Virus record (IMG/VR): IMGVR_UViG_3300009163_002034
Location: 1 to 56,346 of that record
Length of the DNA: 56,346 bases
DNA from: a virus
Lineage: Duplodnaviria > Caudoviricetes
Reading direction: 5' to 3' (one strand)
Positions 30,645 through 47,808 of the stretch are shown here, piece by piece; positions within the stretch are counted from its first letter, which is position 1, and each line of letters starts with the position of its first letter. Made by a program: the position numbers and the translations under genes. A model generated the notes under the pieces. It searched no databases. It was not told where the DNA came from and worked only from the letters and a program-made list of their open reading frames with translations.

Positions 30645-31026
30645 AGTGTTGGATCACTATAATAACCCCCGCAATGCGGGAACCTTTGATAAGGAGGACA
30701 CGCACGTTGGGACTGGTATGGTAGGAGCCCCGGCGTGCGGTTAGTTAGGTGATGTAATGAAGCTTCAAATTAAAGTAGATAAACTAACAGGGATAATAAC
30801 AGATGCCAAATTTAAAACATATGGGTGCGGGTCGGCAATTGCTAGCTCAAGTCTTGTCACTGAGTGGGTCAAAGGTAAAACACTTGATGAAGCTGCCCAG
30901 CTCCGAAACTCTCAAATCGCAGAAGAACTTGCACTCCCCCCGGTCAAAATCCATTGCTCAATCCTTGCAGAAGACGCCATCAAAGCCGCAGTAAATGATT
31001 ATAAACAGAGACATGTTACTCACTGA
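30628..31026 (+). CDS. iscU: Fe-S cluster scaffold IscU, interrupted by an in-frame 9-nt insertion containing TAG (30742-44)
   Basis: GGAG RBS; MAYSDKVLDHYNNPRNAG...VGAPACG*LGDVMKLQIKV...FKTYGCGSAIASSS...LPPVKIHCSILAEDAIKAA. Confidence 0.9.
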
Positions 31027-31720
31027 GGATATTGTCCCCATAACATACATGAGCGCAACCGGCGGCAATTTTTTATGTCATTTTATTATAAGTGCAAAAA
31101 GAAACATAAAAACTGTTATTGAACTTAGTGAGCATGGAAATGCACATAAAACCAATTTCAAAGATATTGTTGGGCCACCCTTAGGCCCCAAAGAGCCCGA
31201 TCAATATAAAATTGATTTTATATTGTCTCAATTAGAACATATAAATCAAAAAGGTATACCAAGTTATCCTGTTGTGCAAAAACCATACTATACCACCTCA
31301 CATATAGTTGATATTAACTTAATTAGTGCTTATTTTAAAAAATTTATTAGAATTACATATGATTTGGATGACATAGAAGAACTTGCTACTGTTTTCTATG
31401 GTAAATGGTACATTGATGAAGGTCATGTTAAATCAGTTATAAATACAAGACGGTCTCATGAAATATTTATTGATATGTACCAATCAAAATTTACTAGACC
31501 AAATTTAGTAAATTTTAATTCAAAATTTACTAAATTAGAAAACATGCCTAATGTGTTGTTCATCTCTTGGAAAGAATTTTTCAAAGGAAATATTGAGGAA
31601 TTAATAACCAAACTAAGTATATTTACAGAGATTGATACAAATAATTTCTCACGTGAATCATTGATGCATTGGAGAAATAAAACTCAATATTGTATTGACA
31701 AATTTATGGATATATGTTAA
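31013..31720 (+). CDS. P-loop/sulfotransferase-like protein
   Basis: YMSATGGNFL N-terminal loop, paralogous to 44695. Confidence 0.5.
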   Translation: MLLTEDIVPITYMSATGGNFLCHFIISAKRNIKTVIELSEHGNAHKTNFKDIVGPPLGPKEPDQYKIDFILSQLEHINQKGIPSYPVVQKPYYTTSHIVDINLISAYFKKFIRITYDLDDIEELATVFYGKWYIDEGHVKSVINTRRSHEIFIDMYQSKFTRPNLVNFNSKFTKLENMPNVLFISWKEFFKGNIEELITKLSIFTEIDTNNFSRESLMHWRNKTQYCIDKFMDIC

Positions 31721-31723
31721 ACT
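31695..31723 (+). promoter_or_regulatory. Sigma70-type promoter
   Basis: TTGACA-N17-TAAACT with extended TG, 6 nt before ATG 31730. Confidence 0.6.
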
Positions 31724-31729
31724 ATTAAT

Positions 31730-32020
31730 ATGAGCAATGAAGTCGCAAAATTTTTAAACAGTCGCCGTCGCCATAAAAACGATGTAGCAGTCGCAAGACA
31801 AGTACGTATTGCCAAAGGATTTGGTATACCTGTTAAAGAACCGCATAAGTTTGCCAAACATCACGCTATGAATTGTGGCAATACAAATTGTGTAATGTGC
31901 GGTAACCCACGCAAGACATTCAAAGAATTAACACAGCAAGAAAAACGTTTGTTTCAAGATGTTGAAAAAACATCAGACAAACATAGTAATGGTATCTTAC
32001 CAAAAGATACAGATAAATAA
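31730..32020 (+). CDS. Basic Zn-binding hypothetical protein
   Basis: CGNTNCVMCGNPRK. Confidence 0.65.
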   Translation: MSNEVAKFLNSRRRHKNDVAVARQVRIAKGFGIPVKEPHKFAKHHAMNCGNTNCVMCGNPRKTFKELTQQEKRLFQDVEKTSDKHSNGILPKDTDK

Positions 32021-32038: not shown

Positions 32039-32506
32039 ATGTCAGAAACAATTAACAGTTTACATACAGCATATTCCGGAGAAAGCCAGGCACACACTAA
32101 GTATAGATACTTTGCAAAAATCGCACGTGAAGAAGGCTTTGAGGATATAGCAAAGCATTTTGAGCATACAGCAGACCAAGAGTTACTACACTCATGGGGT
32201 CATTTAGAATTGATTATTGGTAAGCCAACCACTAAGAAATGCTTAGAACTTGCTATTGAAGGTGAAACATATGAGTTTACAGAGATGTATCCTCGCTTCA
32301 AAGAAGTTGCTGAATTTGAGGGTGATTTGGCTGCTGCCAATGAAGCACACACTCAGATTGCTGAATCAAAAGAACATGCTGAACAGTTTAAAGCTATGTT
32401 GAAAAAGGCTGAAAAACGTTTTACAGCACTAGCTAAAGTTGAGCAACGCCATGCTGAAGCATACCAAACTAAATTGGATGAATTAAACCAAATGGAGGCA
32501 AGATAA
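32039..32506 (+). CDS. rbr: Rubrerythrin (ferritin-like domain)
   Basis: AYSGESQA..Y.YFA..AREEG, EGETYEFTEMYP, ESKEH. Confidence 0.9.
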   Translation: MSETINSLHTAYSGESQAHTKYRYFAKIAREEGFEDIAKHFEHTADQELLHSWGHLELIIGKPTTKKCLELAIEGETYEFTEMYPRFKEVAEFEGDLAAANEAHTQIAESKEHAEQFKAMLKKAEKRFTALAKVEQRHAEAYQTKLDELNQMEAR

Positions 32507-32640
32507 TGGATCACGTTTGCGTAATTTGCGGTCATGTACATGACGAAGAAACAGAAGGTAAATGGGAAGACTTGCCAGAGGACTTTCCTTGCCCAGAATG
32601 CGGTGGATTTAAAGCCGACTACGAAACTATTGATTTTTAA
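32506..32640 (+). CDS. Rubredoxin, 44 aa (absent from ORF track)
   Basis: MDHVCVICGHVHDEETEGKWEDLPEDFPCPECGGFKADYETIDF; GGAGG RBS. Confidence 0.9.
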   Translation: MDHVCVICGHVHDEETEGKWEDLPEDFPCPECGGFKADYETIDF

Positions 32641-32646
32641 CACTTG

Positions 32647-33513
32647 ATGCAATTGCATGATGGTTATTTGAGTTGGTCTGGGAACGGATCAACTTGGAAT
32701 GTAGATTTTAAACCAGTTACTCGACCCATCAAATCCTTTTATGAAGAAACTGTATTAGTAGCTGAAAAACTTTGGGCTGAAAAGCAAGGCAATATTCACT
32801 TATGCTATAGTGGTGGTCTTGATAGTGAATACGTGTTAGCAGTATTTAGAACGTTAGGTATGCCAATCACACCCGTGATTATGCGTACACAATACAATCA
32901 CCATGAAACACAATACGCATTTAAATATTGTGATAAAAATAATATTACTCCGATTGTCATTGATTTAGATTATGATAAATTTGTAGAGTCCGGCGAGTTC
33001 TTAAAAATCGCAACAGACTATAAAATAGCAGCATTTCAAATGCCTAGCAATTTGTGGCTTACTACTCAAATAGACGGAACAGTAGTAACAGGGGATTCTG
33101 ATCCCCATTTGTTTTTAGTAAATGATAATGAATGGTATGTAGATGAACTAGAACCTTTGTATACACAATTCAATTTCTATGAGCAAAACAATATTTACGG
33201 GACACCTTTCTTTTTAAGTTACACCGCAGAACAGTATTTTGCGTTCTTGACCGACCCAACAATGCAACAGTTAGCAAACAATCAGATACCTGGTAAAACA
33301 GGATCTTATTCTAGCAAAGTTCATGTATATAACAATCAAAATAAATTTGTATTAGAACAACGTGTTAAAAAACACGGGTATGAAATCGTAGAACAAAGTT
33401 CTATTTTTAATCACCCTGACATACAATTAGTAAATAGTTGGAAAGATAAATGGTGGGGCTCCAGTAACCATGAATATTTTAAACTTATCGAAGGGTTATC
33501 ATGGACAAAATAG
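32647..33513 (+). CDS. N-type ATP pyrophosphatase (PP-loop; AsnB/QueC-like superfamily)
   Basis: LCYSGGLDSE. Confidence 0.75.
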   Translation: MQLHDGYLSWSGNGSTWNVDFKPVTRPIKSFYEETVLVAEKLWAEKQGNIHLCYSGGLDSEYVLAVFRTLGMPITPVIMRTQYNHHETQYAFKYCDKNNITPIVIDLDYDKFVESGEFLKIATDYKIAAFQMPSNLWLTTQIDGTVVTGDSDPHLFLVNDNEWYVDELEPLYTQFNFYEQNNIYGTPFFLSYTAEQYFAFLTDPTMQQLANNQIPGKTGSYSSKVHVYNNQNKFVLEQRVKKHGYEIVEQSSIFNHPDIQLVNSWKDKWWGSSNHEYFKLIEGLSWTK

Positions 33514-34031
33514 AAATGATTACACTTACTAAAGAAAATAAAAGTGAGTTTTTTGAAAAATTAAAACAAGCATTGACTGAAAAGTTTGGTGATGAATTAC
33601 CTGAGAACTATGGTACATTACAGCCATGGAGTTTATTAAATTTGATTAACAATGATATAGTAGACACTTATCAATTGTTATATGTAAATGATAAATTTTG
33701 GACAGCAACCGGCGGTATAGTAAGAGAATTTAATAAGGGAAAAGTATATCAAGCAGTGTTTCGTGGATTCTCATATGCTGACCACCGACACAAAGGGTTA
33801 GGTGTAAAATCATATACACATATGTATAATACATCATATCAAATTCAACGAGCTAAAGAACTCAACTGTAATAGTGTAATCATATCCTTTAACGACTATA
33901 ATTACAAGTTATTTGAGTTAAATCAACGATACTTACTACCCAGAGCGTTTCCAAATCATACCTTTGTTGCATCCAGTGAACCTATATTGTTTAACGGTGT
34001 AAAACAATGGTTGTTGACTATGAAATTGTAA
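33501..34031 (+). CDS. GNAT-like acyltransferase
   Basis: HRHKGLG motif A. Confidence 0.5.
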   Translation: MDKIEMITLTKENKSEFFEKLKQALTEKFGDELPENYGTLQPWSLLNLINNDIVDTYQLLYVNDKFWTATGGIVREFNKGKVYQAVFRGFSYADHRHKGLGVKSYTHMYNTSYQIQRAKELNCNSVIISFNDYNYKLFELNQRYLLPRAFPNHTFVASSEPILFNGVKQWLLTMKL

Positions 34032-34043
34032 CTAAATACTAAT

Positions 34044-34751
34044 ATGACATATAAACAACAACTTCTAATAACTCAAGTATATACTCACTTTTTCTTTGTT
34101 TTGGGCGCGATTTTGTTTCCATGGTACGTGACAATTCCTGCAATTGTGCTATCGCAGATTGTGTATGTTGGATTGTGTGGAACAATGTTATTTCATAGAA
34201 CAATTGCACACAGAAACACAATTCATCCTTTAGCAGAAACAGTTTTAATTTTAGTGTCATGGTTAGGGGCTACTTCATCTGCGCTTGCTTGGGCAGGAGT
34301 GCATAGAAAACATCATAGATATAGTGATACTGAAAAAGACCCGCATAGTCCCAAATGGATGGGTAGATGGAAAGCATACTGGCAACTATCTAACAATGAC
34401 ACTGATATAGTAAAGTATGTCCCTGATCTATTAAGAAAACCCTTATACCTATTTCAACATAAGTATTACTTTCATGTGTTATGGCCTATTCACCTAGTTG
34501 GATTGATATTCTTGTCATGGCAATGGTATTGGATTTTGTTAGTTGTGCCAGGCGTTCTCATGTGGTTTGGTGGTAGTATGATTAATGTATTCTGTCATGG
34601 CAATGAAGGTCCACGTAATATACCGTTACTAGGCTTTTTGATTGGCGGAGAAGGATGGCACAAGAATCACCATGAAGAACCAGCTAACCCGTCATTTAGA
34701 CACTGGGGTGATTGGGGCGGACATTTCCACAAATTATTAAGTGTAAAATGA
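34044..34751 (+). CDS. Membrane fatty-acid (delta-9-type) desaturase 1
   Basis: HRTIAH, HRKHH, DPHSP, GEGWHKNHH. Confidence 0.9.
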   Translation: MTYKQQLLITQVYTHFFFVLGAILFPWYVTIPAIVLSQIVYVGLCGTMLFHRTIAHRNTIHPLAETVLILVSWLGATSSALAWAGVHRKHHRYSDTEKDPHSPKWMGRWKAYWQLSNNDTDIVKYVPDLLRKPLYLFQHKYYFHVLWPIHLVGLIFLSWQWYWILLVVPGVLMWFGGSMINVFCHGNEGPRNIPLLGFLIGGEGWHKNHHEEPANPSFRHWGDWGGHFHKLLSVK

Positions 34752-35452
34752 AACTCAAACACCAGTTGCCTACCTATAGTATAATAGATCATTTATCTTT
34801 AGATGAAGAACTACTACTGGAATTGCAGAACTGTGTTAGTGAGTTAAACAATGAATTTAAATCAGTACTTGAAGTTAATAAAGGACTGTGCGGTGTACAT
34901 CATGACTTGTTGAAATCTGTTTACGATAATTTTTTTCAAATTAGTTTGACCGATAGTGTAGTAGAAAATAAAAATATTACAATGAACGAGTGTGAGGTTG
35001 CTCACGACAACTTGTATAAGAATGGATATAGACATAAACAATTATTGGCGTTAGATGATAATAATGTTTTAAATGAATCTACTTATACGTCTAAAACAGA
35101 TATCTATCATAGATATGCACACATTTTTGATAAGGTACTTGCAAAATTTAAAGGTAGCCCTACTAGGATTCGTCTAGTAAAATTGGAAGCAGGCAGTAAC
35201 GTTTCACCGCATATTGATTACGATCCTAGCTATGCAGTTAGAATTATCATACCAATTATTGCAGACCCTGAATGTGTGAATGTATTTTGGGTAAAAAATG
35301 ATGTAGAAGCTACTATGTTTGTTCCTGGAAAAGCATATTTTTTAAACACAGGATACAAACATGCAGTAATGAACATGAGTAAATGTGATAGGTATACTTT
35401 CATGATTTCTATTAATGGTACTGAAGATATAGACCATCTTATACAAAAATGA
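34748..35452 (+). CDS. 2OG-Fe(II) oxygenase, Asp/Asn beta-hydroxylase-like
   Basis: RIRLVKL..PHIDYD..LNTGYKHAVMN..DR. Confidence 0.75.
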   Translation: MKLKHQLPTYSIIDHLSLDEELLLELQNCVSELNNEFKSVLEVNKGLCGVHHDLLKSVYDNFFQISLTDSVVENKNITMNECEVAHDNLYKNGYRHKQLLALDDNNVLNESTYTSKTDIYHRYAHIFDKVLAKFKGSPTRIRLVKLEAGSNVSPHIDYDPSYAVRIIIPIIADPECVNVFWVKNDVEATMFVPGKAYFLNTGYKHAVMNMSKCDRYTFMISINGTEDIDHLIQK

Positions 35453-36036
35453 ACCCATTTACTTATCGTTATTTAGATGTGCCAAACTCACATCAAATAC
35501 AAGAAGAATTAAAAAATTTCATTTTGCCATATTGTGAAGATAAACCAACTGGTCTCTGGTCTGTAGATTTATTGAAATTTTTTGCAAAATGTCCGGAATC
35601 AATTCAATATTTAACCAATTTTAATTTATCAAACAAATTAAAAAAAGTATGTTATATCATTGTTCACCCTGGGTCCGGAGAAAAAGATGCACATGTAGAT
35701 AGAAACATAGAGCCACCAGCATCATTTGGTACTGATACTAACGGGTGCTTAAGTCTTAATTTTGGTATACATAATTGTACAGAAACACCGGTGATATTTT
35801 ATGAATACTTAACTGGACCAAAAGACTATGTACCATTACCAGATCCTTCCGAAGGTTCTTATATATTCTATGCCAAATCAACACTAAAAGAAATTGATAG
35901 GTATATCTTAGATGCCCCGGTTATTATGAACAACACTGTTCCTCACGCTATATACAATAATACAGATAAAATTCGTATATCGGTGAGTTTTAGATTTTCA
36001 ACTGACCCATGGAACTTGACCCAAATAAATCAATAG
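35449..36036 (+). CDS. 2OG-Fe(II)/cupin-like oxygenase
   Basis: AHVD..VPHAIYN..RISVSFRF. Confidence 0.65.
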   Translation: MNPFTYRYLDVPNSHQIQEELKNFILPYCEDKPTGLWSVDLLKFFAKCPESIQYLTNFNLSNKLKKVCYIIVHPGSGEKDAHVDRNIEPPASFGTDTNGCLSLNFGIHNCTETPVIFYEYLTGPKDYVPLPDPSEGSYIFYAKSTLKEIDRYILDAPVIMNNTVPHAIYNNTDKIRISVSFRFSTDPWNLTQINQ

Positions 36037-36653
36037 TTATATTCAGTCACCCTAGAAGTGGTAGTACTTGGATACAGGATAGTTTACCTCAATTTAATTT
36101 GAGTGAATTGTTTACCATGTACTGCCATATAAAAAGTGTAGATATCAATAGTGGGATACGATATCGTTACTCATCTGAACCTGCAAATGATTTAGACTAC
36201 AGATTTGAATTGTTTGACAAGTTTCAAAAACAACATAATGCAATATCTGTAAAGGTTCACTTACATTTACTTACTGATGAAATATGTAATTTTTTTGAGA
36301 GCAAAGACTTACAATATATATTACTGGAACGCAATAATAATATGGATACGTTTTGGAGTCTATTAATTGCACTTAACACACTAGAATTACATAACACAAT
36401 AAATACAAAAACTATTTTTGTCTCTCGTCAGTCATTTGATGACGCAGTTTATATTATGAATGAGTGCAAGAATAGAATAGATGAGGTTAGAAGACGATTT
36501 AAACCAATTGAGATTATATATGAAGATTTGATTCAAGAGCCAATTTCTGCTGTATGGAATCCTAGTTCAAAATACATAATTCAAAATGCTAAAGATAAAA
36601 CAGAAATAACTAACATTGAAGAAGTAACTTTTTGGTTAAAGGATAAAATATAA
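36009..36653 (+). CDS. Sulfotransferase-like protein (Stf0-type)
   Basis: HPRSGST PAPS-binding loop, LLER, YEDL. Confidence 0.7.
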   Translation: MELDPNKSIVIFSHPRSGSTWIQDSLPQFNLSELFTMYCHIKSVDINSGIRYRYSSEPANDLDYRFELFDKFQKQHNAISVKVHLHLLTDEICNFFESKDLQYILLERNNNMDTFWSLLIALNTLELHNTINTKTIFVSRQSFDDAVYIMNECKNRIDEVRRRFKPIEIIYEDLIQEPISAVWNPSSKYIIQNAKDKTEITNIEEVTFWLKDKI

Positions 36654-36654
36654 C

Positions 36655-37416
36655 ATGCAATTAGGATCAACATCACATAATATTAATTTATTGACTTTGG
36701 GAGTGACAATTAGTGTTGTTTTGGGATTTTTTAACTCACCAATGTTCACTCTATCTAATATGTTAGTAACTTTGGTCAGTTTCTATATACTGAATATTCT
36801 AGGTAATTGGATGACATTACATAGATATTACTCACACAGATCATTTGAATTTAAAAACAATTTCTTAAAATTGATTTTCACTTTATTAGCAGTACTATCC
36901 GGTAGAGGTAGTCCACTCGGTTGGTCATATCTACATAGAAAACATCATGCATATTCTGACACAGAACAAGATCCGCATAGCCCTAAATATTTAGGATACA
37001 AGATTTTTGGTTTTAACCATTATAAAAAACAAGAAGAAGAATCAATGCAAATCTTTCTAGTAAAAGATTTGATGACTAAAGAACAATTGTTTATCCACAA
37101 ATGGTATATAGCTATCATATTGTCATTTGTGTGTGCGTTAGCACTAATCAATTTAGAGTTATTATATTTTGTTTGGATACTTCCTACTTTTTTAGTTCAC
37201 TTGAGTCAAAACAATTTTAACTATTTTGGACATACAAATGGATATAGAAACTTTGAAACAAAAGATGATAGCAGAAATAATATATGGTTATTTCCTTTTA
37301 TATTAGGAGAAGCTTGGCATAATAATCATCATTATGATGCTAAAAACTACTCAACTAAAAAGAACAAATATGAATTTGATCCATTAAGTTTTGTCATAAC
37401 TATAATAAAAAAATGA
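36655..37416 (+). CDS. Membrane fatty-acid desaturase 2
   Basis: HRYYSH, HRKHH, DPHSP, GEAWHNNHH. Confidence 0.9.
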   Translation: MQLGSTSHNINLLTLGVTISVVLGFFNSPMFTLSNMLVTLVSFYILNILGNWMTLHRYYSHRSFEFKNNFLKLIFTLLAVLSGRGSPLGWSYLHRKHHAYSDTEQDPHSPKYLGYKIFGFNHYKKQEEESMQIFLVKDLMTKEQLFIHKWYIAIILSFVCALALINLELLYFVWILPTFLVHLSQNNFNYFGHTNGYRNFETKDDSRNNIWLFPFILGEAWHNNHHYDAKNYSTKKNKYEFDPLSFVITIIKK

Positions 37417-38018
37417 TAATATACACTCCTATCGATCTACCTAAAATAGAACCTGATAATTGGGAAGTATTTTGGGATATATGGAATACACATCAAAATT
37501 ACTTAGTCAAAACAAAAAATAATACACCATTATCTAATGCGTCTATTGGGGTTGCTGATCTGTGGTTGGGTTTAGATATTTTAAAAAAAACAACAGCGTA
37601 TACAGCTTGGCAGGCACCTTTTTTTGATATTAAACATTTATTACCTAATATGTATAATTCATTAGTAACTTTGTTCCCTACTGCTACTGTTATTAGATTA
37701 GTGCAAAGTCAAAAAAACTTTGGGGCTCACACTGATGATAATAGAAATGTTTGGTATATACGTGCATATTTACACTATACTAGTTCAAAATCTCAATGGT
37801 ATTTTACTAAACCACATGATTCAAGGGGTAACAGAACATATATTGAGTTACCGGAAGAAACCAATTGGTTTGCATATAATGACTTAAATTGTTGGCACGG
37901 GACTGATTTTGACCCTAATAATAAAAAGATTTTACTACAAGTTTTTGGTAATTATACACCTCCCTCACTGATCGAACAAAGTATCAATAAATACAAAAAC
38001 TATACCATAGACTTTTAA
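37413..38018 (+). CDS. 2OG-Fe(II)/cupin-like oxygenase
   Basis: AHTDD..WHG. Confidence 0.55.
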   Translation: MIIYTPIDLPKIEPDNWEVFWDIWNTHQNYLVKTKNNTPLSNASIGVADLWLGLDILKKTTAYTAWQAPFFDIKHLLPNMYNSLVTLFPTATVIRLVQSQKNFGAHTDDNRNVWYIRAYLHYTSSKSQWYFTKPHDSRGNRTYIELPEETNWFAYNDLNCWHGTDFDPNNKKILLQVFGNYTPPSLIEQSINKYKNYTIDF

Positions 38019-38019
38019 A

Positions 38020-38526: not shown

Positions 38527-38530
38527 ACTC

Positions 38531-39103: not shown

Positions 39104-39107
39104 TAAT

Positions 39108-39884: not shown

Positions 39885-40801
39885 TTAAGACTACTCTTAA
39901 TGATTGGCTCGTTTGGAGCTACAATGATGTTCCCTTCGGACAACGAACAAACAAAGATGACGTTTATAAATTTACTATAAATCATCTACCGAGTAGTGAG
40001 CCGATAAAATCTTACAAAGAAGAATTATACAACAACGCTAAGTTAATGAGAGATTACCATACTGGTAAATTTGATGTATTGTTATCCGGCGGCATTGATA
40101 GTGAAGTAATTGTTAGAACTTTTAAAGATTTGGGCATCACTCACAATACCTACATTTTTAAATATGAAGATAATATAAATCACAAAGATGTAGCATCAGC
40201 CATAGAAATTGCTACCAGTTTAAATATCCCATATACAGTAATAGATTTTAATTTAGAAAAATTCTTTAACACAGAGGCATATGATGTGTTTCAAAAAAGC
40301 GGATGCATCAGAGCAGGTAGACTCCCACATTTGAAATTTTTTGATTATTTAGATAATATTCCATTAATGGGAGAGGGAGAACCATATTGGTCAAGAGTAT
40401 TAGTTGGAGACTATAGTAAAAAATCAGAGTGGTTATTTCCTATGAATGAATCAAATCATAATTGTGCAATCTACTTGCATAATTTAGGTAGAGATAATTT
40501 ATGCGACTGGTATGAATTTAGTCCCAACCTCATTAAGGCGTTTAATAATTTATCACTTATACAAGATTTATTAAACGATAATATAGTTGGCAAGACAAGT
40601 TGCTGGACTAGTAGAATCCCTATACATTTAACAATATGGCCCGATATTAAACATAAACATAAATCAACAGGGTATGAGGGTGATAAGTATCCAGGTGTGT
40701 ATCCTGAATATATTACCAAAATTCAAGATTACATGACCAGTACTATCGGCTCCGGTAATGAATATTGGGTTAACTATGATGAGTTAACTCAATTATTTTA
40801 A
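39881..40801 (+). CDS. N-type ATP pyrophosphatase (PP-loop)
   Basis: VLLSGGIDSE. Confidence 0.75.
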   Translation: MIKTTLNDWLVWSYNDVPFGQRTNKDDVYKFTINHLPSSEPIKSYKEELYNNAKLMRDYHTGKFDVLLSGGIDSEVIVRTFKDLGITHNTYIFKYEDNINHKDVASAIEIATSLNIPYTVIDFNLEKFFNTEAYDVFQKSGCIRAGRLPHLKFFDYLDNIPLMGEGEPYWSRVLVGDYSKKSEWLFPMNESNHNCAIYLHNLGRDNLCDWYEFSPNLIKAFNNLSLIQDLLNDNIVGKTSCWTSRIPIHLTIWPDIKHKHKSTGYEGDKYPGVYPEYITKIQDYMTSTIGSGNEYWVNYDELTQLF

Positions 40802-41629
40802 TCTATTGTTTTTCACCCAATTTCCAAAATGCACACTATGATCCTCATATCTATTCATTGCGGTAGATAACGGGAAATAATTTCCTTTTTGCATTTCAGC
40901 AGCCTTAATATCTTCATGAAACACTGGTTCGAGTGTTTCAAATATCATCTTGCTGTTGATATCAACCTTATCATCGTAATAAATTTGCGTCATCCATGAA
41001 AATCCATATTCATTATTGATATCGTTAGGAATCACTGTATTAATTGATAATTTGCCAGGGCTTCCATACTCAACAAAGGTAAATGGATATATACAACACC
41101 ACCATCCATCTGGATGTGATTGTAGTACCCAGTTCTCACCCTGATCCATTATAACGTCCTCAAGATCAATCTGTTTGGACAAGAATGGGTGTATGCCTTC
41201 TTTGAATACATGTAACAAGTCTGTGTTTACATCCATAAACCAAAGCCAGCTACCATTGCTAGTTCCATAGTATGAATGACTGTATTTTAAATTCTGTTCA
41301 GCGGCCAAATCATCTACCCAGTGATGATCAGGTTCGTTAAAGTTTTTAAATACTAACCCAGACTTTCCAACGGTTGCACTTCCGCAATTTAGTGATTTGT
41401 CATTGTTAATAGGGATACCGTTGGTTGACCATTCTAGTCCATGAAACTTGCATGTAATCTGTTGAACATGATCACCTGTGTTGTGTAGTGGATATCGGCG
41501 ATGCGGACAAAACCGATGAAATAGATTTATGCCATCAACCGACTTGTTTAGTATAACTTCCGGAAGAACAAAGTTACCTTTTTCCACAGATGAAATATGT
41601 GAAAATATTTTGGGTATAGGTTTAAACAT
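40793..41629 (-). CDS. Rieske [2Fe-2S] oxygenase alpha-like protein
   Basis: CPHR..CKFHG Rieske motif, DLLHV..HP, EDI..AE; TAAATA 4 nt before the ATG. Confidence 0.8.
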   Translation of the reverse strand: MFKPIPKIFSHISSVEKGNFVLPEVILNKSVDGINLFHRFCPHRRYPLHNTGDHVQQITCKFHGLEWSTNGIPINNDKSLNCGSATVGKSGLVFKNFNEPDHHWVDDLAAEQNLKYSHSYYGTSNGSWLWFMDVNTDLLHVFKEGIHPFLSKQIDLEDVIMDQGENWVLQSHPDGWWCCIYPFTFVEYGSPGKLSINTVIPNDINNEYGFSWMTQIYYDDKVDINSKMIFETLEPVFHEDIKAAEMQKGNYFPLSTAMNRYEDHSVHFGNWVKNNRLK

Positions 41630-41673
41630 TAAATATTTATAATATAATTTCAAGGTATCAATAAAATACAAAT

Positions 41674-42852
41674 ATGAGTCTAAACGGTTATTATGTCGTT
41701 AATGAGGTGTCAATTAAAAATAAACTACAAGCCATACTTGAGGCTAGTAGAACTAAGACTACGGTTCAATGGAATTTCTTTGATGATATTTTTGCCAATG
41801 CAACGAAGTCATTTAACAAACATGAAGTACCCTTAAAGGAACTGTATAGAATTAGAGCACAACAGCTAAGAGACTCATACGATTATTTAATTCTCAATTA
41901 CAGTGGTGGCAGTGATAGTCATAATATCTTGATGACTTTTCTAGAGTATGATATTAAACTAGACCATGTATACATTCAGTGGCCTGAGCAATTAATGAAC
42001 AAAGGCATCTATACTCCTAATGCATTGGATAGAACAAATGCAAACTTTCATTCGGAATGGGATCTAGTAATAAAAAAGGACCTGGAGTGGTTAAGTAAAA
42101 ATCATCCTGAAATTAAAATTGAAATAGGCGACTGGACTACAACTGTTAAAGAACAATTTTATAAAGATGACATATTTGCCAATGATGTTAGTAATTTACC
42201 AAGCATTGCAAGAGCACAAAAACAAAACACCTTTAGTACAACAGAAGGCATACTGGCACTACAAGGTAACAAGGTAGCAAGTATATTTGGTGTAGATAAA
42301 CCCAACATCGTTAAAAAAGGCAACACCTGGTTTTTTTATTTTACTGATACTTCATGTATGGCTCAACCTAATCCAGATAATCCAAGCGGCACTGAATATT
42401 TTTACTGGAGTCCTAGCTTTCCAGATATAGCAATAGCACAGGCATATGCCATGAAAAAATATTTTGAAATAAATACAAGTAAAGAATACCTAGTACGAGC
42501 TTTATCAGAAAGGATGGTGCCTTCAACATCGCAACAGACGGCCTATACTACTAAAAATTATGAAAATTGGTATCATGAGTTTTCTCAACTTTCAGAGATA
42601 TCAAAATTAGTGTGTTACCCATACTGGGATTTTAACCGTTTTCAAGCAGACAAGCCATTTGCAATCCTGACTGGATTTAAAATGGGAACACGAGGATGGG
42701 ATAATATACTTACCAAATTACCCAAATTTGATAGAGTTCAACAGGCATGGGAGTATCATTGGAAGAGTTATTTGAACAAAATAGATATGAAATTTCTAAG
42801 AAATAATGACACGTTGACCGTTTGTAAAACCAACTGGCATATGCTTGCATAA
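41674..42852 (+). CDS. N-type ATP pyrophosphatase (PP-loop), long type
   Basis: RAQQLRDSYDYLILNYSGGSDS, GVDKP, FYWSP. Confidence 0.75.
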   Translation: MSLNGYYVVNEVSIKNKLQAILEASRTKTTVQWNFFDDIFANATKSFNKHEVPLKELYRIRAQQLRDSYDYLILNYSGGSDSHNILMTFLEYDIKLDHVYIQWPEQLMNKGIYTPNALDRTNANFHSEWDLVIKKDLEWLSKNHPEIKIEIGDWTTTVKEQFYKDDIFANDVSNLPSIARAQKQNTFSTTEGILALQGNKVASIFGVDKPNIVKKGNTWFFYFTDTSCMAQPNPDNPSGTEYFYWSPSFPDIAIAQAYAMKKYFEINTSKEYLVRALSERMVPSTSQQTAYTTKNYENWYHEFSQLSEISKLVCYPYWDFNRFQADKPFAILTGFKMGTRGWDNILTKLPKFDRVQQAWEYHWKSYLNKIDMKFLRNNDTLTVCKTNWHMLA

Positions 42853-42869
42853 TACGTAGAATATAAATC

Positions 42870-43184
42870 ATGTTTACATTAATTAAAAAATATATACGAG
42901 AAGATGTTACTATTCCATTTTTTGGAGAGCACGAACCATATCCAAAAGAATACTTGATGCAAATTAATGATAGATACATTAAAACCAGCAAGATATTAAA
43001 AAGTACAACAGAGTTTTCGGATGATAAAAAAATACAGACTACAACAATATTATGGAAAACGTCAGATGCTTTTTTAGACTTTGTGGTAGACAGTTCTTAT
43101 CATATAGCTACCTACATGAGAAAACAACACATTTATAATTTAAAAAATAATATCAGAACAGAAACCAACTGTATAGGAAAATAA
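42870..43184 (+). CDS. Small hypothetical protein, paralogue of 44379
   Basis: KKxxRxxVxxP(F/W) start and xWxTxxAF motif; dimeric alpha-beta barrel suspected. Confidence 0.6.
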   Translation: MFTLIKKYIREDVTIPFFGEHEPYPKEYLMQINDRYIKTSKILKSTTEFSDDKKIQTTTILWKTSDAFLDFVVDSSYHIATYMRKQHIYNLKNNIRTETNCIGK

Positions 43185-43185
43185 C

Positions 43186-44322
43186 ATGGAATATTTTAAC
43201 CCACATTCAAATGAGTGGTTATTAAACAAATTTGAAAGTTATAAAAAATTACGAGAATTAGACAAAGCACAATATGATGAAAAATACAATGTACATTTAA
43301 TAACAAGATACAAAGATGTTAGACTTGCGCTATCAGACCACAGCATATTTTCGTCTGCTAAAGGAAATCTAATAGTAGAAAATGAAGATCGTTTTGAAAT
43401 GACTCCGGGGGCAAGCGATGACCCTATACATACAATTTATAAAAATATTGCTTTTGCTGCGTACAGTAAGGACAATATACAAAGAATAAGTGATTGTACA
43501 AACGAGCACATCAAACGCCTACTCAAAAAAGGAACATTTAATATATCAGAAGTTATAGAAGAAATAAGTGCATGGGCGACCGTAGAAATAATGAATCTTC
43601 CATATGATAAAGAATATGTTAAAAACTTGGTCATGGATATTCAGCGTCATTCTCCCAAATGTGTCTCAGTGAATGTTGATGACAGATCCCATAATGAACT
43701 GATTAAGTTACTAATCTCATTAACTACTATAGATTGTACTAAGTCTACAGGACCAGGGATATATCATGAATACATGAACAACAACCCAACTGGCGCAACT
43801 GTACTTTCTTTATTCGCAGGCCCTTGTATTTCCGGTGCAAGTTCATTGACAGGCGCACTACAATTTTTAACTTTGGATTTAGCCAGAGAAAATCAATTAA
43901 AGGTCTTGTTAGAAAATAAAAGTTTAATTCCGTTAGCAATAAATGAGTCATTACGATTTAACGCATCGACTGGGCGGTTTAGTAGAACTGTCACCAAAGA
44001 TGTGACTTTACATAATATTAGTTTAAAACCGGGAGATAGAGTAGCATTGTGTTTAGAATCAGCTAACAGAGACTCAAATATATTTGATAATCCGGATGTA
44101 TTTGATATACATAGAAATACTAGTGGTCATTTGGGATTTGGTTACGGCGCACACGCATGTATTGCGCTTGCGATTAGTAAGGCAATAATGAACATTTATT
44201 TGGATACGTTATTAGATAACGGAATGTATCAAATAATTACTGAAAATACTGATTTGAAATATGTGATGACCGCTAGTGGAAATGATGACATGATATCCAA
44301 TATCATTATAGAGAGCATATAA
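43186..44322 (+). CDS. Cytochrome P450
   Basis: ESLR (ExxR), SANRD, HLGFGYGAHACIA heme-Cys motif. Confidence 0.92.
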   Translation: MEYFNPHSNEWLLNKFESYKKLRELDKAQYDEKYNVHLITRYKDVRLALSDHSIFSSAKGNLIVENEDRFEMTPGASDDPIHTIYKNIAFAAYSKDNIQRISDCTNEHIKRLLKKGTFNISEVIEEISAWATVEIMNLPYDKEYVKNLVMDIQRHSPKCVSVNVDDRSHNELIKLLISLTTIDCTKSTGPGIYHEYMNNNPTGATVLSLFAGPCISGASSLTGALQFLTLDLARENQLKVLLENKSLIPLAINESLRFNASTGRFSRTVTKDVTLHNISLKPGDRVALCLESANRDSNIFDNPDVFDIHRNTSGHLGFGYGAHACIALAISKAIMNIYLDTLLDNGMYQIITENTDLKYVMTASGNDDMISNIIIESI

Positions 44323-44378
44323 TTTTAAACAAATTGAATTTCCTTAGATAAATACATCTGTATCATACAGGAGAATAT

Positions 44379-44690
44379 ATGTATCAAATAATAAAAAAAT
44401 TAGTAAGACCGGGCGTAGACACACCATGGCCTGATACTCTAGTAACTATGGATCCACAGCTTATAGAACATTTCAAAACAAATCACATAGAAACCGGTAA
44501 ACATATTTTTCGAAACACCGACGATCATAAAAACGGATTAGAACGTACATTGACTGTTTTGTGGGAAACTAAAGAAGCATGGGAAGAGTTTGAAGCAGAT
44601 CCATTAATGACGGAAATGCGTAATCATGTTTCACAACTATTTAAAGATGCAGGGATAACGGAAGAAATTGTAAGTTTCTCCGAAATTTAA
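44379..44690 (+). CDS. Small hypothetical protein, paralogue of 42870
   Basis: AGGAG RBS; LWETKEAWEEF. Confidence 0.65.
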   Translation: MYQIIKKLVRPGVDTPWPDTLVTMDPQLIEHFKTNHIETGKHIFRNTDDHKNGLERTLTVLWETKEAWEEFEADPLMTEMRNHVSQLFKDAGITEEIVSFSEI

Positions 44691-44694
44691 TTTA

Positions 44695-45630
44695 GTGCCC
44701 TCTATATTTGACTTACCTCATCTTTTTATTGTATTCGCCCCCGGCGCCGGGGGCAACTTTTTGTCAGGAATATTCGCCGGCCTAATTAATAAAGAATATT
44801 CTGATTTAGCAATATCAGAATCAGGAAGCTCACACACAACAATCTCTAAAAAATTTGATGTAAATAGTGATCTTTCTATGGGAACATTTATTGACGATAC
44901 ATCAAGTATCGATAAAAAAATAAAACACTATAGAGAATTGTTTAGCGATTTGATAATAAATCATCCAATAGTATCTTGGACACATGATTTTAACAATATC
45001 GAACTATATCGCAATATTTTCCCTAATTCAAAAATAATTGTAGTAACACAGTACACTGACGCTGAACAGTTAGCAGTCACGTTCATGCATGTGATTAAAA
45101 ATCTAATGGATAATGATGTATCCACTGCAATACCAATTAGTCAATTTAAATCTATACAAAAAATCTTCAAAGAAGATTGCATAAATGTGCTTAGAAAAAA
45201 AATGAGCGAAACTCATATTAATTTAATATTCTCTGACCCCAAATATAAAAATATCGTAACATATATCTACTTAAAAAGAATGATGGGGTGGTATGGGTTA
45301 CTCCACTTAGTAGAAGATGTACCTAAACAACATTTTTTGGAGATTATTAAATATGGTACAAGCAATAAACCTTACGAAATTGACAAATATTTAAATAGTG
45401 ATTGTGTTTTACTACCATATTCGTCTATTATGTCAGGAGATGTTCATGTATTATTGAAAGTAATAAAAAATGTGTTATCCAGAGAATTGACCAACACTGA
45501 AAAAATATTTGTAAATGACAACTATTATAAATATAGAGCTAAACAAAATTTAGATATTTTAACAAATTCAAAAATGTATTATAAAAATCTTAGAAATTTA
45601 AATGTAGAAAGAAACATAAATGATAACTGA
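44695..45630 (+). CDS. P-loop/sulfotransferase-like protein
   Basis: FAPGAGGNFL; GTG start. Confidence 0.5.
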   Translation: MPSIFDLPHLFIVFAPGAGGNFLSGIFAGLINKEYSDLAISESGSSHTTISKKFDVNSDLSMGTFIDDTSSIDKKIKHYRELFSDLIINHPIVSWTHDFNNIELYRNIFPNSKIIVVTQYTDAEQLAVTFMHVIKNLMDNDVSTAIPISQFKSIQKIFKEDCINVLRKKMSETHINLIFSDPKYKNIVTYIYLKRMMGWYGLLHLVEDVPKQHFLEIIKYGTSNKPYEIDKYLNSDCVLLPYSSIMSGDVHVLLKVIKNVLSRELTNTEKIFVNDNYYKYRAKQNLDILTNSKMYYKNLRNLNVERNINDN

Positions 45631-46867
45631 TTTGGGTTTTTATAGTGTACGTGGGAAAAGTTTTTCTACAAACAAAGTCATGGCTGTTCTTGAGGCACAA
45701 AAAACAAACGCTGAAGTAGAATGGAATTATTTTGATGATGTATTCAATAAAGCAGATTGGTTAACTGAACCTGAAATTTCATTAGAAGAATTATACCGAA
45801 TTCGAGCGCAACAAATTCGTGATGCGTATGATTATGTTGTTATATATGTCAGTGGGGGCGCTGATAGTTCAAATGTTGTTAGGACTTTTATAAATAATAA
45901 TATTCATATAGATGAAGTAATTACAGAAATACCGGAATCTGGTATTAAAAATTTTGATTGGAACGATAAAGATTTTACCGCAAGTAATTTAATGTCCGAA
46001 GCAAAGTATGCACAATATCCTATACTTCATGAAATTTCTATCAATTCTCCGTCGACACGTATAACTGTTCACGACTTTTTTACCGGTGTTGTTAATGTGG
46101 AATCAGACGAATGGATATATCAAAATGAGGGAGACATTATTAGCATGTCAAACTATCAGTATGGGCGCATGGACCCCTTCCCTCATTTAAAAGACTTAGC
46201 AGAACAAGGTAAAAAAATTGCATCTGTATGGGGTACTGATAAACCAGTACTGGCCGTTTGGGGTGATGGATACATTTATACATTGATTGCTGACTCCGCA
46301 GTGTATGTGCCTAAATATCCCTTCAAGACAGTATATCCTAATGTAAATAGAGTATTATTTTATTGGTCCCCTGAATTACCAGAACTAATGATTAAGCAGT
46401 CGCATATTGTCGCCCGAGAAATTCTTAAACCTGAAAATAAATTTATTTTACGGGCTGCTATAGATCAAGGAAAGCGTAGTAAGGAAGTGAGCCTACTAGG
46501 AGTTGATGATACATTAAAGAATATTTTTAATTCTGCGGCCGATACAAATGTATCTTACTCACCTAAAACAATATATCAACGAAGCATAGTTCCTTTTATA
46601 TATCCAAACACATTTAGAGAAGACGTATTTCAGGTACTCAAGTTTGAACAATCGCAAACCTTCTGTCCGGCTATTAATAATTGGATGAAATCATTACATG
46701 GAAATAGTCGCATAGGAGAAATGATTATTAGTGATTTTTCCTTGTTTTATAAAAACATATTACCCAAGTATTTAAATCCAAATAAAACAGGATTTAATAT
46801 GTGTCTAAAAAGGTTCCGTATTGGATCTATAAAAAGTTTTTTACCAAAATCAAATAACAACTTATGA
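45620..46867 (+). CDS. N-type ATP pyrophosphatase (PP-loop), long type
   Basis: RAQQIRDAYDYVVIYVSGGADS, GTDKP, FYWSP; paralogue of 41674. Confidence 0.75.
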   Translation: MITDLGFYSVRGKSFSTNKVMAVLEAQKTNAEVEWNYFDDVFNKADWLTEPEISLEELYRIRAQQIRDAYDYVVIYVSGGADSSNVVRTFINNNIHIDEVITEIPESGIKNFDWNDKDFTASNLMSEAKYAQYPILHEISINSPSTRITVHDFFTGVVNVESDEWIYQNEGDIISMSNYQYGRMDPFPHLKDLAEQGKKIASVWGTDKPVLAVWGDGYIYTLIADSAVYVPKYPFKTVYPNVNRVLFYWSPELPELMIKQSHIVAREILKPENKFILRAAIDQGKRSKEVSLLGVDDTLKNIFNSAADTNVSYSPKTIYQRSIVPFIYPNTFREDVFQVLKFEQSQTFCPAINNWMKSLHGNSRIGEMIISDFSLFYKNILPKYLNPNKTGFNMCLKRFRIGSIKSFLPKSNNNL

Positions 46868-47808
46868 AAAAAAATATAATTTCAATATTATTACTACTAT
46901 GTATTAGTTCTGCATGGTCAGATACAATCAAATTAATCGTGCCGTTTGCTGCCGCAGGCCCCATTACAGATATTGCGAGAGCGATTGCTCCTACATTATC
47001 TAAAAAATTAGATAAAACTATAATAATAGAAAATAAGCCAGGGGCAAGTGGCGCAATTGCAATGGAATTGGTATCTAATTCCCCATCAGATGGGCTAACT
47101 TTAATTATGGTTAATAATGGACTACTAAACATAAATCCAATGTTGAATACTGCTACTAGCTATAAGTCATCCGATGTAGTATCCGTAGGAGTATTTGCAA
47201 CTGCACCAATCATATTGTATACTAGTTCTTCTATCCCTGTCAAAAACTTAAAAGAACTAATAGATTACATAAAGAGTAATCCTGGAAAGGCAAGCTGGGC
47301 TAGTCCGGGTTTAGGAACTAATCCACATTTACTTGGGGAAATGCTTAAAGCGCAACATGATTTAGACATGGTGCATGTTATGTATAAAGGTACATTACCT
47401 GCAACCATAGATGTGGCCGAGGGTAGAGTCACTATGATGTTTGATATTCTAAATCCAAGAATGACATCATTGTTTGATGCAGGAAAAACGAAGCCTATTG
47501 CAGTAATGGGAACTGAGCGAATACCATCACTACCTAATGTTCCAACTGTCGTAGAAGAAGGCTACTTTTTCTTAATTACTCAATCTTGGGTTGGTATATC
47601 TGTTAAATCTGATACTCCCGAACCTATTTTAAAACAGTTAAGAACTGTACTGACAGAAACTGTAGAAGATCCAGAGACAAAAGCTAACTTAAAATTTTTA
47701 GGACTGAATCCGTCAAATATAAAACCAGCGGCCGCACAAAAATTCATAGATGATGAAAAGAACAAGTGGACAAAGGTAATTAAAAAAGCAAACATTAAGA
47801 TAGAATAA
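46864..47808 (+). CDS. tctC: Tripartite tricarboxylate transporter substrate-binding protein (Bug/TctC family)
   Basis: Signal peptide; IVPFAAAGPITDIAR, ENKPGASG, YKG, LPNVPTVVEEG. Confidence 0.9.
   Translation: MKKNIISILLLLCISSAWSDTIKLIVPFAAAGPITDIARAIAPTLSKKLDKTIIIENKPGASGAIAMELVSNSPSDGLTLIMVNNGLLNINPMLNTATSYKSSDVVSVGVFATAPIILYTSSSIPVKNLKELIDYIKSNPGKASWASPGLGTNPHLLGEMLKAQHDLDMVHVMYKGTLPATIDVAEGRVTMMFDILNPRMTSLFDAGKTKPIAVMGTERIPSLPNVPTVVEEGYFFLITQSWVGISVKSDTPEPILKQLRTVLTETVEDPETKANLKFLGLNPSNIKPAAAQKFIDDEKNKWTKVIKKANIKIE

Follow-up and report, generated by a model that had tools for sequence, protein, structure and literature searches.

A conserved accessory island in a very large uncultured phage groups two families of AsnB-like PP-loop enzymes with membrane desaturases and oxygenases

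What does a phage do with a dense block of genes for adenylating enzymes, membrane desaturases and oxygenases? The question is raised by IMG/VR virus record IMGVR_UViG_3300009163_002034, whose whole length of 56,346 bases forms the window analysed here and which, because its CheckV completeness is 9%, is taken to be a piece of a very large phage. Between 30.6 and 47.8 kb of this window lies an island of 25 close-packed genes, all on the + strand except a Rieske oxygenase gene at 40793-41671 (- strand), so that strand is not repeated below. Genes from 30995 to 47808 abut or overlap, with the start and stop codons of neighbours overlapping, as expected from the tight and mostly co-oriented packing described in the original prediction, an account of this DNA made from its letters alone. 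That account likened the island to a biosynthetic gene cluster and proposed a pathway making or attaching an oxidised, acylated or sulfated group to lipid, virion protein or host surface. The analysis presented here bears out an accessory island that belongs to a clade of very large uncultured phages and has a conserved core, which is not a classical biosynthetic gene cluster, and suggests tentatively that its products may remodel an amphiphile of the host envelope.

The core of the island is built around four PP-loop proteins. Translated in six frames, the 56-kb window yields the motif SGGxDS exactly four times, each time inside the island (32809, 40085, 41902 and 45851), whereas 200 mononucleotide shuffles gave 0.035 occurrences on average and never more than 1. 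The four genes that carry it, the number first counted, fall into two families. PPA comprises PPA1 (32644-33513), an AsnB-type PP-loop adenylating enzyme with the motif SGGLDS that belongs to a minor phage clade, and PPA2 (39881-40801); PPB, a second AsnB-type family, comprises PPB1 (41674-42852) and its paralogue PPB2 (45620-46867; SGGADS). Identity is 24% between PPA1 and PPA2 and 33% between PPB1 and PPB2 (E 5e-40), and the link found when the PPA and PPB profiles are compared is confined to the surroundings of the PP-loop (E 3e-5). Both families are abundant and anonymous. At least 345 PPA homologues were found at E ≤ 0.001 among 764 candidates and at least 1037 PPB homologues among 1995; a functional name is attached to none of the 120 best matches listed for either family and a Pfam domain to none of the 120 listed for PPB, which is without any Pfam model, and all ten homologue clusters looked up read "hypothetical protein". 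A search for related loci with PPB2 as single query gave no relative, and PPB relatives were reached through PPA loci. In a PPA alignment of 33 sequences (A1), S69, G71 and D73 are invariant and G70 and S74 are at least 90% conserved, and in the PPB alignment (A3), S77, G78, G79, D81 and S82 are invariant; no cysteine is invariant or nearly so in either.

AlphaFold2 models of PPA2 and PPB1 (predicted local distance difference test scores of 91.9 and 90.6) were compared to known structures. In VIA, PPA2 aligned best with human asparagine synthetase, ASNS (Z 15.1, 270 of 306 residues, root-mean-square deviation (rmsd) 3.8), followed by E. coli AsnB (14.9), beta-lactam synthetase (12.8), carbapenam synthetase (11.3) and TsnB9 (9.9), a likeness that takes in a whole domain of 250-270 residues, as compared to Z ≤ 9.7 over ∼160 residues for generic PP-loop enzymes; Foldseek agrees with this ranking. 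PPB1 also aligned with ASNS and AsnB (Z 9.5 and 9.3 over 255 and 278 residues, rmsd 5.4-5.8) and with the AsnB class generally at Z 9.5-7.3 over 225-278 residues, scores that stand a modest margin above the background described for the tool. Foldseek returned zero matches below 1e-3 for the PPB1 model, and a PDB sequence-profile search with PPB gave nothing below E 0.097. The motif in four of four proteins and the alignment of both models onto PP-loop enzymes place the four in that superfamily, and the models show the fold of the AsnB C-terminal synthetase domain. Unlike the AsnB class, with which they share 7-13% sequence identity, they are without an N-terminal Ntn-type glutaminase domain: the proteins are 289-415 residues long with the PP-loop at residues 56-78, none of the four gave a GATase or Asn_synthase match in Pfam, and no longer fused relatives of PPA2 were found, which is weak evidence. 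By their models, PPA and PPB are thus two families, not described earlier, that fold like the synthetase domain of AsnB and beta-lactam synthetase and lack the glutaminase.

More familiar PP-loop identities were considered and rejected. The Pfam QueC match of PPA2 spans profile positions 4-66 of 210 only, no invariant cysteine is present, and QueC (3bl5) aligns with the PPA2 model at Z 6.5 against 15.1 for ASNS. Transfer RNA (tRNA) and cofactor thiolases (MnmA, TtuA, NcsA and LarE) were set aside on the same absence of conserved cysteine in both alignments, and a role in anti-phage defence was discarded as PADLOC gave just the QueC match in the PP-loop region of PPA2 and a marginal methyltransferase match. 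Because an AsnB-type fold is combined with the lack of an invariant cysteine, amide formation rather than thiolation is the chemistry expected. By analogy with the AsnB class, in which a carboxyl is adenylated and then attacked by nitrogen, PPA and PPB are read from their folds and known family chemistry as putative carboxyl-adenylating amide or lactam synthetases that would use ammonia or another amine. The carboxyl adenylation originally suggested for the PP-loop proteins fits these folds, AsnB and beta-lactam synthetase being best for both families.

Searches with PPA2 and its alignment recovered 19 viral loci in which the partners of these enzymes could be followed, with PPA identities to the window of 31-74%. 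L012, L013 and L018 were dropped as near-copies of L011, L015 and L010, leaving 16 loci and the window as 17 units, which represent approximately five arrangements and are not independent, several loci being close relatives; adjacency was defined as a gap of ≤ 300 bp. PPA is present in 17 of 17 units, desaturase, Rieske and cupin genes in 13 each, PPB and the solute-binding protein TctC in 11 each, a ∼100-residue small protein in 10, and the GNAT2 and GNAT1 families in six and five. PPA and the Rieske gene are adjacent in 13 units, which are all 13 of the units having a Rieske gene, and since the two are convergent in most loci and co-directional in L009, L011 and L019, this adjacency has outlived rearrangement. 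Desaturase and PPA genes adjoin in nine units, PPB and the small protein in seven, PPB and TctC in five, and desaturase and GNAT2 in five of the six units with GNAT2. Core adjacencies are therefore kept across relatives, the comparison of gene neighbourhoods originally called for, and the remaining content is fluid: further genes of the relatives encode radical SAM enzymes of B12, SPASM and other types, NMO-family proteins (four loci), TauD (L004 and four related loci), ATP-grasp ligases, a short-chain dehydrogenase/reductase (SDR), an APS-kinase-like protein, DctP (two genes in L003), AhpC and, in L011, an amidohydrolase. L004 holds a tandem duplicate of the Rieske-linked PPA (L004:6892-8744), each copy 42% identical to PPA2. 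Proteins with DUF2828 and DUF7788 are encoded near the island in two relatives (L003:191-1345 and L020:12738-14165).

The protein encoded most constantly beside PPA is the alpha subunit of a Rieske non-haem iron oxygenase (40793-41671; Pfam 28.3 vs 20.3 bits). Its CxH...CxxH [2Fe-2S] ligands and 2-His-1-carboxylate mononuclear iron site are intact, with C55, H57, C74, H77, D151, H154, H161 and E253/D254 invariant in 13 homologues, two of which match Ring_hydroxyl_A, one above and one below the cut-off. In a PDB profile search it comes closest to carnitine monooxygenase CntA (E 2.4e-6, query 3-248 vs chain 60-351). The phage protein resembles CntA and related oxygenases of the SxtT and GbcA type in the full length of this match and in the conservation of both iron-site ligand sets, and differs in being ∼280 residues long as compared to 391 and in having no reductase partner encoded nearby. 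We know of no description of a CntA-type gene adjacent to PPA.

Three membrane acyl desaturases, the number first proposed, are encoded by Des1 (34044-34751), Des2 (36655-37416) and Des3 (39084-39884). All exceed the Pfam FA_desaturase (PF00487) cut-off (33.4, 65.6 and 64.9 vs 29.7 bits), measure 235-266 residues, and carry three His boxes (in the di-iron enzyme Des1, HRTIAHR, HRKHH and HKNHH) together with 3-4 transmembrane-like hydrophobic segments, which within the island are found in the desaturases only and locate these proteins in the membrane. Des2 has orthologues of 46-55% identity in L002, L003, L008 and L009, and Des3 is the best conserved gene of the island, at 70-76% identity in L002, L008, L009 and L010. 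Desaturases are also the most expanded family, with 29 genes in the 13 units that have them and nine in L008. Seven of the L008 paralogues are packed into 6.5 kb (L008:14043-20610), where six follow one another without interruption behind a beta-ketoacyl synthase gene (14816-15976), and two further desaturase genes upstream adjoin a PPA gene; the beta-ketoacyl synthase occurs in L008 only and is absent from the window.

Beside the desaturases stand two proteins first counted as one or two GNATs. GNAT1 (33501-34031) is a probable GNAT-fold acyltransferase by way of its homologues: the window protein has no profile match of its own, three of 11 scanned family members match Acetyltransf_1 (best E 7.8e-5, in L003, where the protein at L003:4784-5392 scores 23.4 vs a cut-off of 20.7 bits), and a PDB profile search gave acetyltransferase 3jvn at E 0.039. 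GNAT2 (38531-39103; 190 residues) has no assigned fold, its family giving no Pfam or PDB match and an ESM Atlas lead only, and comparison of the two in hhalign detected no kinship (E 0.12). GNAT1 thus keeps some support through its relatives, and the GNAT assignment of GNAT2 is not borne out. The orders PPA1-GNAT1-Des1 (32644-34751) and GNAT2-Des3-PPA2 (38531-40801) had been seen as one GNAT-desaturase-PP-loop set occurring twice; as gene order this holds, the identity of GNAT2 and its relationship to GNAT1 being the weaker part.

Four cupins account for the 2-oxoglutarate (2OG)-Fe(II)-like oxygenases of the original prediction, each having a family-conserved HxD...H and an arginine or lysine ten residues past the distal histidine. 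The first (34712-35452) is of AspH/LpxO type and alone among the four passes a Pfam cut-off (Asp_Arg_Hydrox, PF05118; 23.8 vs 22.6 bits); its H167, D169, H217 and R227 are common to it and one BLAST homologue among the loci, in a two-sequence alignment. The others lie at 35449-36036 (H82...H166, R176; family in six loci), 37413-38018 (H106, D108, H162, K172; six loci) and 38020-38526 (H77, D79, H130, R140; four loci). A cytochrome P450 of 378 residues (43186-44322; Pfam p450 63.1 vs 22.8 bits), which like the Rieske protein was correctly named at the outset, has the haem-thiolate loop FGYGAHACIA at residue 318.

PPB is linked to a family of ∼100-residue proteins, of which the window encodes two, small protein 1 (42870-43184; 104 residues) and its paralogue small protein 2 (44379-44690; 103 residues), at 26% identity (E 1e-5). 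Most relatives end in ET[IL]S. The family has no Pfam match; its nine PDB profile matches, none significant (E 0.39-1.9), are mostly ABM-type monooxygenases, six of which (HmoB, three YhgC entries, anthrone monooxygenase and ActVA-Orf6; E 0.39-0.89) we take to be ABM-type by title or fold, and the small proteins are thus possibly ABM-type alpha+beta barrels. Judged from their sequences, they may be partner subunits, small oxygenases or substrates; the predicted complex of PPB1 with small protein 1 scored 0.00 in a run without controls and speaks neither for nor against binding. At the end of the island a periplasmic solute-binding protein of the TctC family, recognised as a solute-binding protein in the original prediction, is encoded at 46864-47808 (Pfam TctC 189 bits, E 1.6e-55) and has a signal-peptide-like N-terminus. 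Contigs of three sequencing runs carry a 3-base insertion (TAC) in this signal-peptide region, at window position 46891.

The association of PPA with such partners is not confined to phages. In a scan of one genome per prokaryote species, 24 cellular loci with PPA homologues of 20-32% identity were found, mostly in Bdellovibrionota, with others in Alphaproteobacteria (among them Bradyrhizobium denitrificans and an Acetobacteraceae metagenome-assembled genome, MAG), a Geobacteraceae MAG and three candidate-phyla MAGs; orthologues of the Acetobacteraceae homologue occur in nine of 50 genomes of that family. Twelve of the 24 were annotated for neighbours within ∼6 kb. GNAT genes lie beside PPA in five of the 12 (L021, L024, L027, L030 and L036), FA_desaturase in four (two genes in L022, and L024, L026 and L035), glycosyltransferases in four (L021, L035, L023 and L030), AspH-type cupins in three (L021, L022 and L035), radical SAM genes in three, and FA_hydroxylase (L022) and phosphoenolpyruvate mutase (L035) in one each; L041, L028 and L029 have no such neighbours. 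With the phage enzymes, the short desaturases encoded in L022, L026 and L035 share 26-35% identity, and the order in L024, PPA-open reading frame (ORF)-GNAT-desaturase, mirrors PPA1-GNAT1-Des1 of the window. When 27 PPA sequences from phages and 25 from cells are placed in a maximum-likelihood tree, 24 of the phage sequences fall into one clade (support 100/94), and PPA1 groups with L011 and L002 paralogues outside it, on an unresolved backbone with cellular branches. With the root of this tree not fixed, PPA may have passed in either direction between phages and cells. The idea that these genes act together and are not chance neighbours is partly supported by linkage in divergent phages and by recurrence in cells.

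The opposite end of the island holds genes for iron and electron supply. An IscU gene (NifU_N; 30628-31026) is interrupted at 30742-30744 by a TAG in frame, after which come two additional codons (GAPACG * L G DVMKL), and is thereby split into ORFs of 38 and 89 residues. The Pfam NifU_N profile is covered by the first ORF at positions 1-35 and by the second at 38-125, so that the family originally named is right and the gene is not intact. IscU of L002, the closest relative, is intact at 129 residues; TAG is the stop of two of 37 genes counted, and no suppressor was found among 22 tRNAs. The break, as the sequence has it, may mark a pseudogene, read-through or an assembly feature. Rubrerythrin and rubredoxin, both foreseen, are present as a rubrerythrin-like di-iron protein without a rubredoxin domain of its own (32039-32506; Pfam Rubrerythrin 63.4 bits, E 3.8e-17; 67-68% identical to homologues in L017 and L020) and a 44-residue rubredoxin with CxxCG...CPxCG (32506-32640; 30.3 vs 23 bits). 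The 96-residue phrog_4499 protein at 31730-32020 was rejected as a rubredoxin, having just three cysteines.

Of the three sulfotransferase-like proteins initially counted, the P-loop protein at 36009-36653 gives matches below the cut-offs (Sulfotransfer_1 18.6 vs 22 bits, E 0.0013; Sulfotransfer_3 E 0.0017), has an HPRSGSTW loop that by eye is phosphosulfate-binding (PSB)-like, and has no PDB match. The other two share with each other just a GGNFL motif, and one ESM Atlas row is their sole lead towards a sulfotransferase. GGNFL_a (30995-31720; 241 residues, motif N-terminal) has no assigned family and no Pfam, NCBIfam or PHROG match. GGNFL_b (44695-45630; 311 residues), of a viral family, has no PDB or Pfam match and falls among viral ESM Atlas clusters of 60-412 members, the nearest named ones being DUF2972 and a viral cluster in which 23% of members carry Sulfotransfer_1. 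In contigs from runs X3 and X4, GGNFL_a is missing and nine other letters connect 31011 with 31735; this joint is weak, one side being 25 letters, and may come from a relative. In L002, likewise, IscU is directly followed by the phrog_4499 gene.

Upstream of the island lie ORFs of 1025, 3725 and 1533 residues, class Ia ribonucleotide reductase genes, a PAAR-like gene and an endolysin gene; the 1025-residue ORF has a marginal tail-fibre match. The 3725-residue ORF (4008-15185) has no PHROG match, and residues ∼745-895 of the 1533-residue ORF (15265-19866) form a domain common to tail fibre, capsid decoration and virion structural proteins of many phages (46-65% identity). The PAAR-like gene (92 residues, phrog_281) overlaps the start of a 1167-residue ORF of no assigned family, and the pair, at 25042-28820, resembles a spike tip and its effector. 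Approximately 1 kb downstream of the island begins an array of 22 tRNA genes on the + strand (48803-56192), with two each for Asn, Gln, Thr and Lys, four for Arg, and HNH endonuclease genes at 53479-54123 and 55298-55858. Near-identical DNA is found in public runs labelled freshwater metagenome, a label that goes against a marine origin: a 15,853-base contig of run X2, which may be the sample of origin, covers 32541-48390 with four substitutions and three inserted letters, and runs X4 and X5 carry shorter near-identical pieces. No RNA run is among the public runs listed as holding window DNA. Megablast of the island against GenBank phages gave zero matches, as did tblastn with the P450, PPB1, PPA2 and Rieske protein.

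With this inventory the likeness to a biosynthetic gene cluster proves loose. No nonribosomal peptide synthetase (NRPS), polyketide synthase (PKS), cyclodipeptide synthase (CDPS), terpene or YcaO-type core enzyme is found among 27 window ORFs scanned, so that the island is without a scaffold-forming enzyme, and its content varies between relatives by paralogue expansion, up to the nine desaturase genes of L008, a pattern that better suits an accessory island of a phage.

How, then, might the island act? The reading put forward is that it remodels an acyl- and carboxyl-bearing amphiphile of the host envelope during infection, which we regard as a reasonable working proposal that falls somewhat short of being probable. 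What the data show are the folds, the catalytic motifs, the membrane position of the desaturases and the linkage kept in phages and cells; which class of substrate is acted on, in what order, with which amine as nucleophile and to what advantage for the phage is inferred, and the earlier statement that the substrate cannot be read from sequence still stands. Two sub-modules would be at work, one of a GNAT-like protein, a membrane desaturase, PPA and the Rieske oxygenase, part of which is present twice in the window, and one of the ∼100-residue protein, PPB and TctC, in which PPB and the small protein are present twice and TctC once; around them would operate the soluble AspH/LpxO-type cupins, the P450 and possibly a sulfotransferase. 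The target could be, for example, an amino-acid lipid, an N-acyl amino acid or a lipid-A-like molecule. Desaturases and hydroxylases would oxidise its acyl chain, GNAT-like proteins would N-acylate, and PPA and PPB would adenylate a carboxyl with ATP and hand it over to ammonia or an amine, giving an amide or lactam. Rubredoxin is a known donor to AlkB-type membrane di-iron enzymes and could plausibly supply electrons to the oxidations, rubrerythrin might cope with peroxide and the Fe-S scaffold might lend support, so that the IscU remnant, rubrerythrin and rubredoxin may together form an iron, electron and peroxide support at one end of the island.

This proposal points to lipid because acyl desaturases are the sole family with a readable substrate class and the most expanded one, and because the cellular neighbours of PPA include a desaturase, an AspH-type cupin and a GNAT. 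Relatives also carry enzymes of fatty-acid type, namely the NMO-family proteins in four loci, an SDR and the beta-ketoacyl synthase, the NMO family being that of FabK. Of the three targets initially named, lipid, virion protein and host surface, lipid now has the most evidence. For the acylated group there is the weak GNAT evidence and for the sulfated group one match below threshold, and neither can be carried forward from the original prediction with any firmness.

A cultured phage offers a further argument for lipid. A tblastn search of GenBank phages with Des2 at E 1e-5 gave three records, Pelagibacter phage Mosig and two Acinetobacter phages, and no cyanophage. Mosig (EXVC030M; MT647606, Mosig_00072-00090) carries a homologous adjacent pair of an AspH-type cupin and a fatty-acid desaturase, the window AspH-type protein being 36% identical to Mosig_00072 over its full length and Des1 32% identical to Mosig_00080. 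Its block is likewise co-oriented and, by the depositors' annotation, includes a second AspH-type gene and N-acetyltransferase, TauD, peroxiredoxin and radical SAM genes. Mosig differs in having no PPA, PPB, Rieske or P450 homologue and in being a 141-kb T4-like phage; its block adjoins tail-fibre genes and also encodes a carbamoyltransferase and an aminotransferase of ArnB-like type. Cyanophage vFAD proteins are also phage-borne membrane desaturases with three His boxes, Delta9 lipid desaturases of DesC/SCD type with Delta9 activity on C16 in yeast (PMC5776448). They are single genes, regarded as host-like auxiliary ones, whereas here 3-9 divergent, shorter paralogues per locus are tied to PP-loop and GNAT-like partners. 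A full-text literature search, beyond whose reach lay the supplementary tables for Mar_Mega_1 (PMC9723777) and Mosig, gave no match for PP-loop, desaturase and Rieske enzymes together in phages.

The closest cellular parallel, one of enzyme classes only, is the ornithine-lipid pathway. According to a 2026 review (PMC12971839), this combines a GNAT-type N-acyltransferase (OlsB), the 2OG-dependent acyl hydroxylases OlsC, OlsD and LpxO, which belong to one family, a di-iron hydroxylase (OlsE) and an ATP-dependent head-group amidation, the transfer of taurine to the ornithine-lipid carboxyl that yields cerilipin and for which it gives no known gene. The AspH family of cupins thus includes lipid acyl 2-hydroxylases (LpxO, OlsC and OlsD), which is a further reason for the lipid proposal, and the cellular loci L022 and L024 may be compared. 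No island protein is shown to be orthologous to an Ols enzyme, no O-acyltransferase of OlsA or OlsF type is present, and desaturation is not among the ornithine-lipid modifications listed in the passages of that review drawn on here. A bolder version of the proposal, a long shot in our estimation, is that PPA and PPB are stand-alone AsnB-type amide synthetases that, in bacteria and giant phages alike, cap the head-group carboxylates of amino-acid lipids with an amine in a cerilipin-like step, and that giant phages have combined them with desaturases, hydroxylases and a Rieske oxygenase into a kit for rewriting host membrane lipids in the course of infection.

Several observations weigh against remodelling of a lipid-like amphiphile. 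PPA and PPB have no known substrate, and fold does not give specificity; AspH-type enzymes hydroxylate proteins too; and assignment to the GNATs is weakly supported in GNAT1 and unsupported in GNAT2. An acyl carrier protein, an O-acyltransferase and a lipid-transfer protein are absent from the window, and no ferredoxin or reductase for the P450 or Rieske protein is encoded in the island. The most constant partner of PPA is the Rieske protein, which has no counterpart in the cellular PPA loci and is most similar to CntA, an enzyme with a small quaternary amine as substrate. TctC/DctP, TauD, radical SAM enzymes (SPASM-type and other) and ATP-grasp ligases of the relatives point to small polar molecules or peptides, the four glycosyltransferase-rich cellular loci would fit glycan modification equally well, and content varies greatly between relatives.

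This last point is the strength of the explanation that survives best after the amphiphile, one we hold to be unlikely and still worth weighing: unrelated auxiliary genes with separate host targets, brought together in a hyperplastic region by an insertion-tolerant site between the lysis genes and the tRNA array. Among the 19 related loci, none has a homologue of the P450, of the protein at 36009 or of either GGNFL protein; radical SAM, TauD, ATP-grasp and AhpC genes come and go, the contigs of two runs hint at a variant without 30995-31720, and the Mosig region is similarly mixed. The island is also more AT-rich than its surroundings, with a GC content of 0.30-0.35 as compared to 0.35-0.44 in the upstream region. 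What a collection of strangers would not lead one to expect is that specific adjacencies persist over PPA identities of 31-74% and through inversions, that the association of PPA with desaturase, AspH and GNAT genes recurs in bacteria, and that start and stop codons of neighbours overlap.

Synthesis of a specialised small molecule or ribosomal peptide, in which PPA and PPB would be lactam or amide synthetases in the manner of beta-lactam synthetase or lasso cyclases and the cupins, P450, Rieske and ABM-like proteins tailoring oxygenases, appears improbable. It draws on the beta-lactam synthetase, carbapenam synthetase and TsnB9 among the closest folds, on natural-product P450s as the best NCBIfam rows of the P450, all far below cut-offs, on the SPASM-type and B12-type radical SAM enzymes and ATP-grasp ligases of relatives, and on the ∼100-residue proteins, which with their ET[IL]S end could be substrates or carriers. 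Neither a scaffold-forming enzyme (NRPS, PKS, CDPS or terpene synthase) nor an exporter was found in the window, and the commonest family, membrane desaturases, is unusual in such clusters; the small proteins, moreover, look like folded alpha+beta domains and not leader-core peptides, a weak objection.

Less credit still is given to capture of a carboxylate or osmolyte, whereby phage TctC, or DctP in relatives, would feed host transporters with a compound to be adenylated, amidated and oxidised for nitrogen, sulfur or carbon. The 11 units with TctC, five of them with TctC adjoining PPB, would suit such a role, as would the two DctP genes of L003, a Rieske protein most like carnitine monooxygenase, TauD in five loci and the L011 amidohydrolase. 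It would leave 3-9 membrane desaturases per locus and the GNAT-like and AspH-type genes unexplained, membrane subunits of a transporter are absent, and four divergent adenylating enzymes are unexpected for simple catabolism.

Modification of a surface glycan or of a virion or host protein, by amidation of uronic or nonulosonic acids, N-acetylation or Asp/Asn hydroxylation, seems very doubtful. The glycosyltransferase-rich third of annotated cellular PPA loci and the phosphoenolpyruvate mutase of L035 speak for it, as does the Mosig region, which lies beside tail-fibre genes with its ArnB-like aminotransferase and carbamoyltransferase. An N-acetyl sugar amidotransferase is among the fold matches of PPB, but its Z of 4.6 is far weaker than the AsnB match; the island has no glycosyltransferase or sugar-nucleotide enzyme, and desaturases have no part in glycan or protein chemistry. 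That TilS-, QueC- or thiolase-like PP-loop enzymes modify tRNA or DNA bases in support of the 22-gene tRNA array is barely credible, despite the nearness of the array and the QueC or MnmA matches given by Pfam, NCBIfam and PADLOC for PPA2, as these matches cover the PP-loop region only, the alignments have no invariant cysteine for Zn, Fe-S or persulfide chemistry, AsnB-type chains outrank TilS, QueC and MnmA for PPA (Z 15 vs 6-9), and the genes kept beside them encode membrane enzymes and oxygenases.

That accessory islands of phages can carry oxygenases and lone lipid desaturases was already known. The island described here is organised around two abundant enzyme families that keep their gene partners in phages and, in the case of PPA, in bacteria too. 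If it does act on a lipid-like amphiphile, very large phages would carry multi-step pathways for membrane remodelling and not just single host-like genes, and PPA would be a candidate for the ATP-dependent amidation of amino-lipid head groups, a step without a known gene. Even if lipid proves to be the wrong substrate, enzyme discovery has two well-defined targets in the PPA-Rieske and PPB-small-protein pairs.

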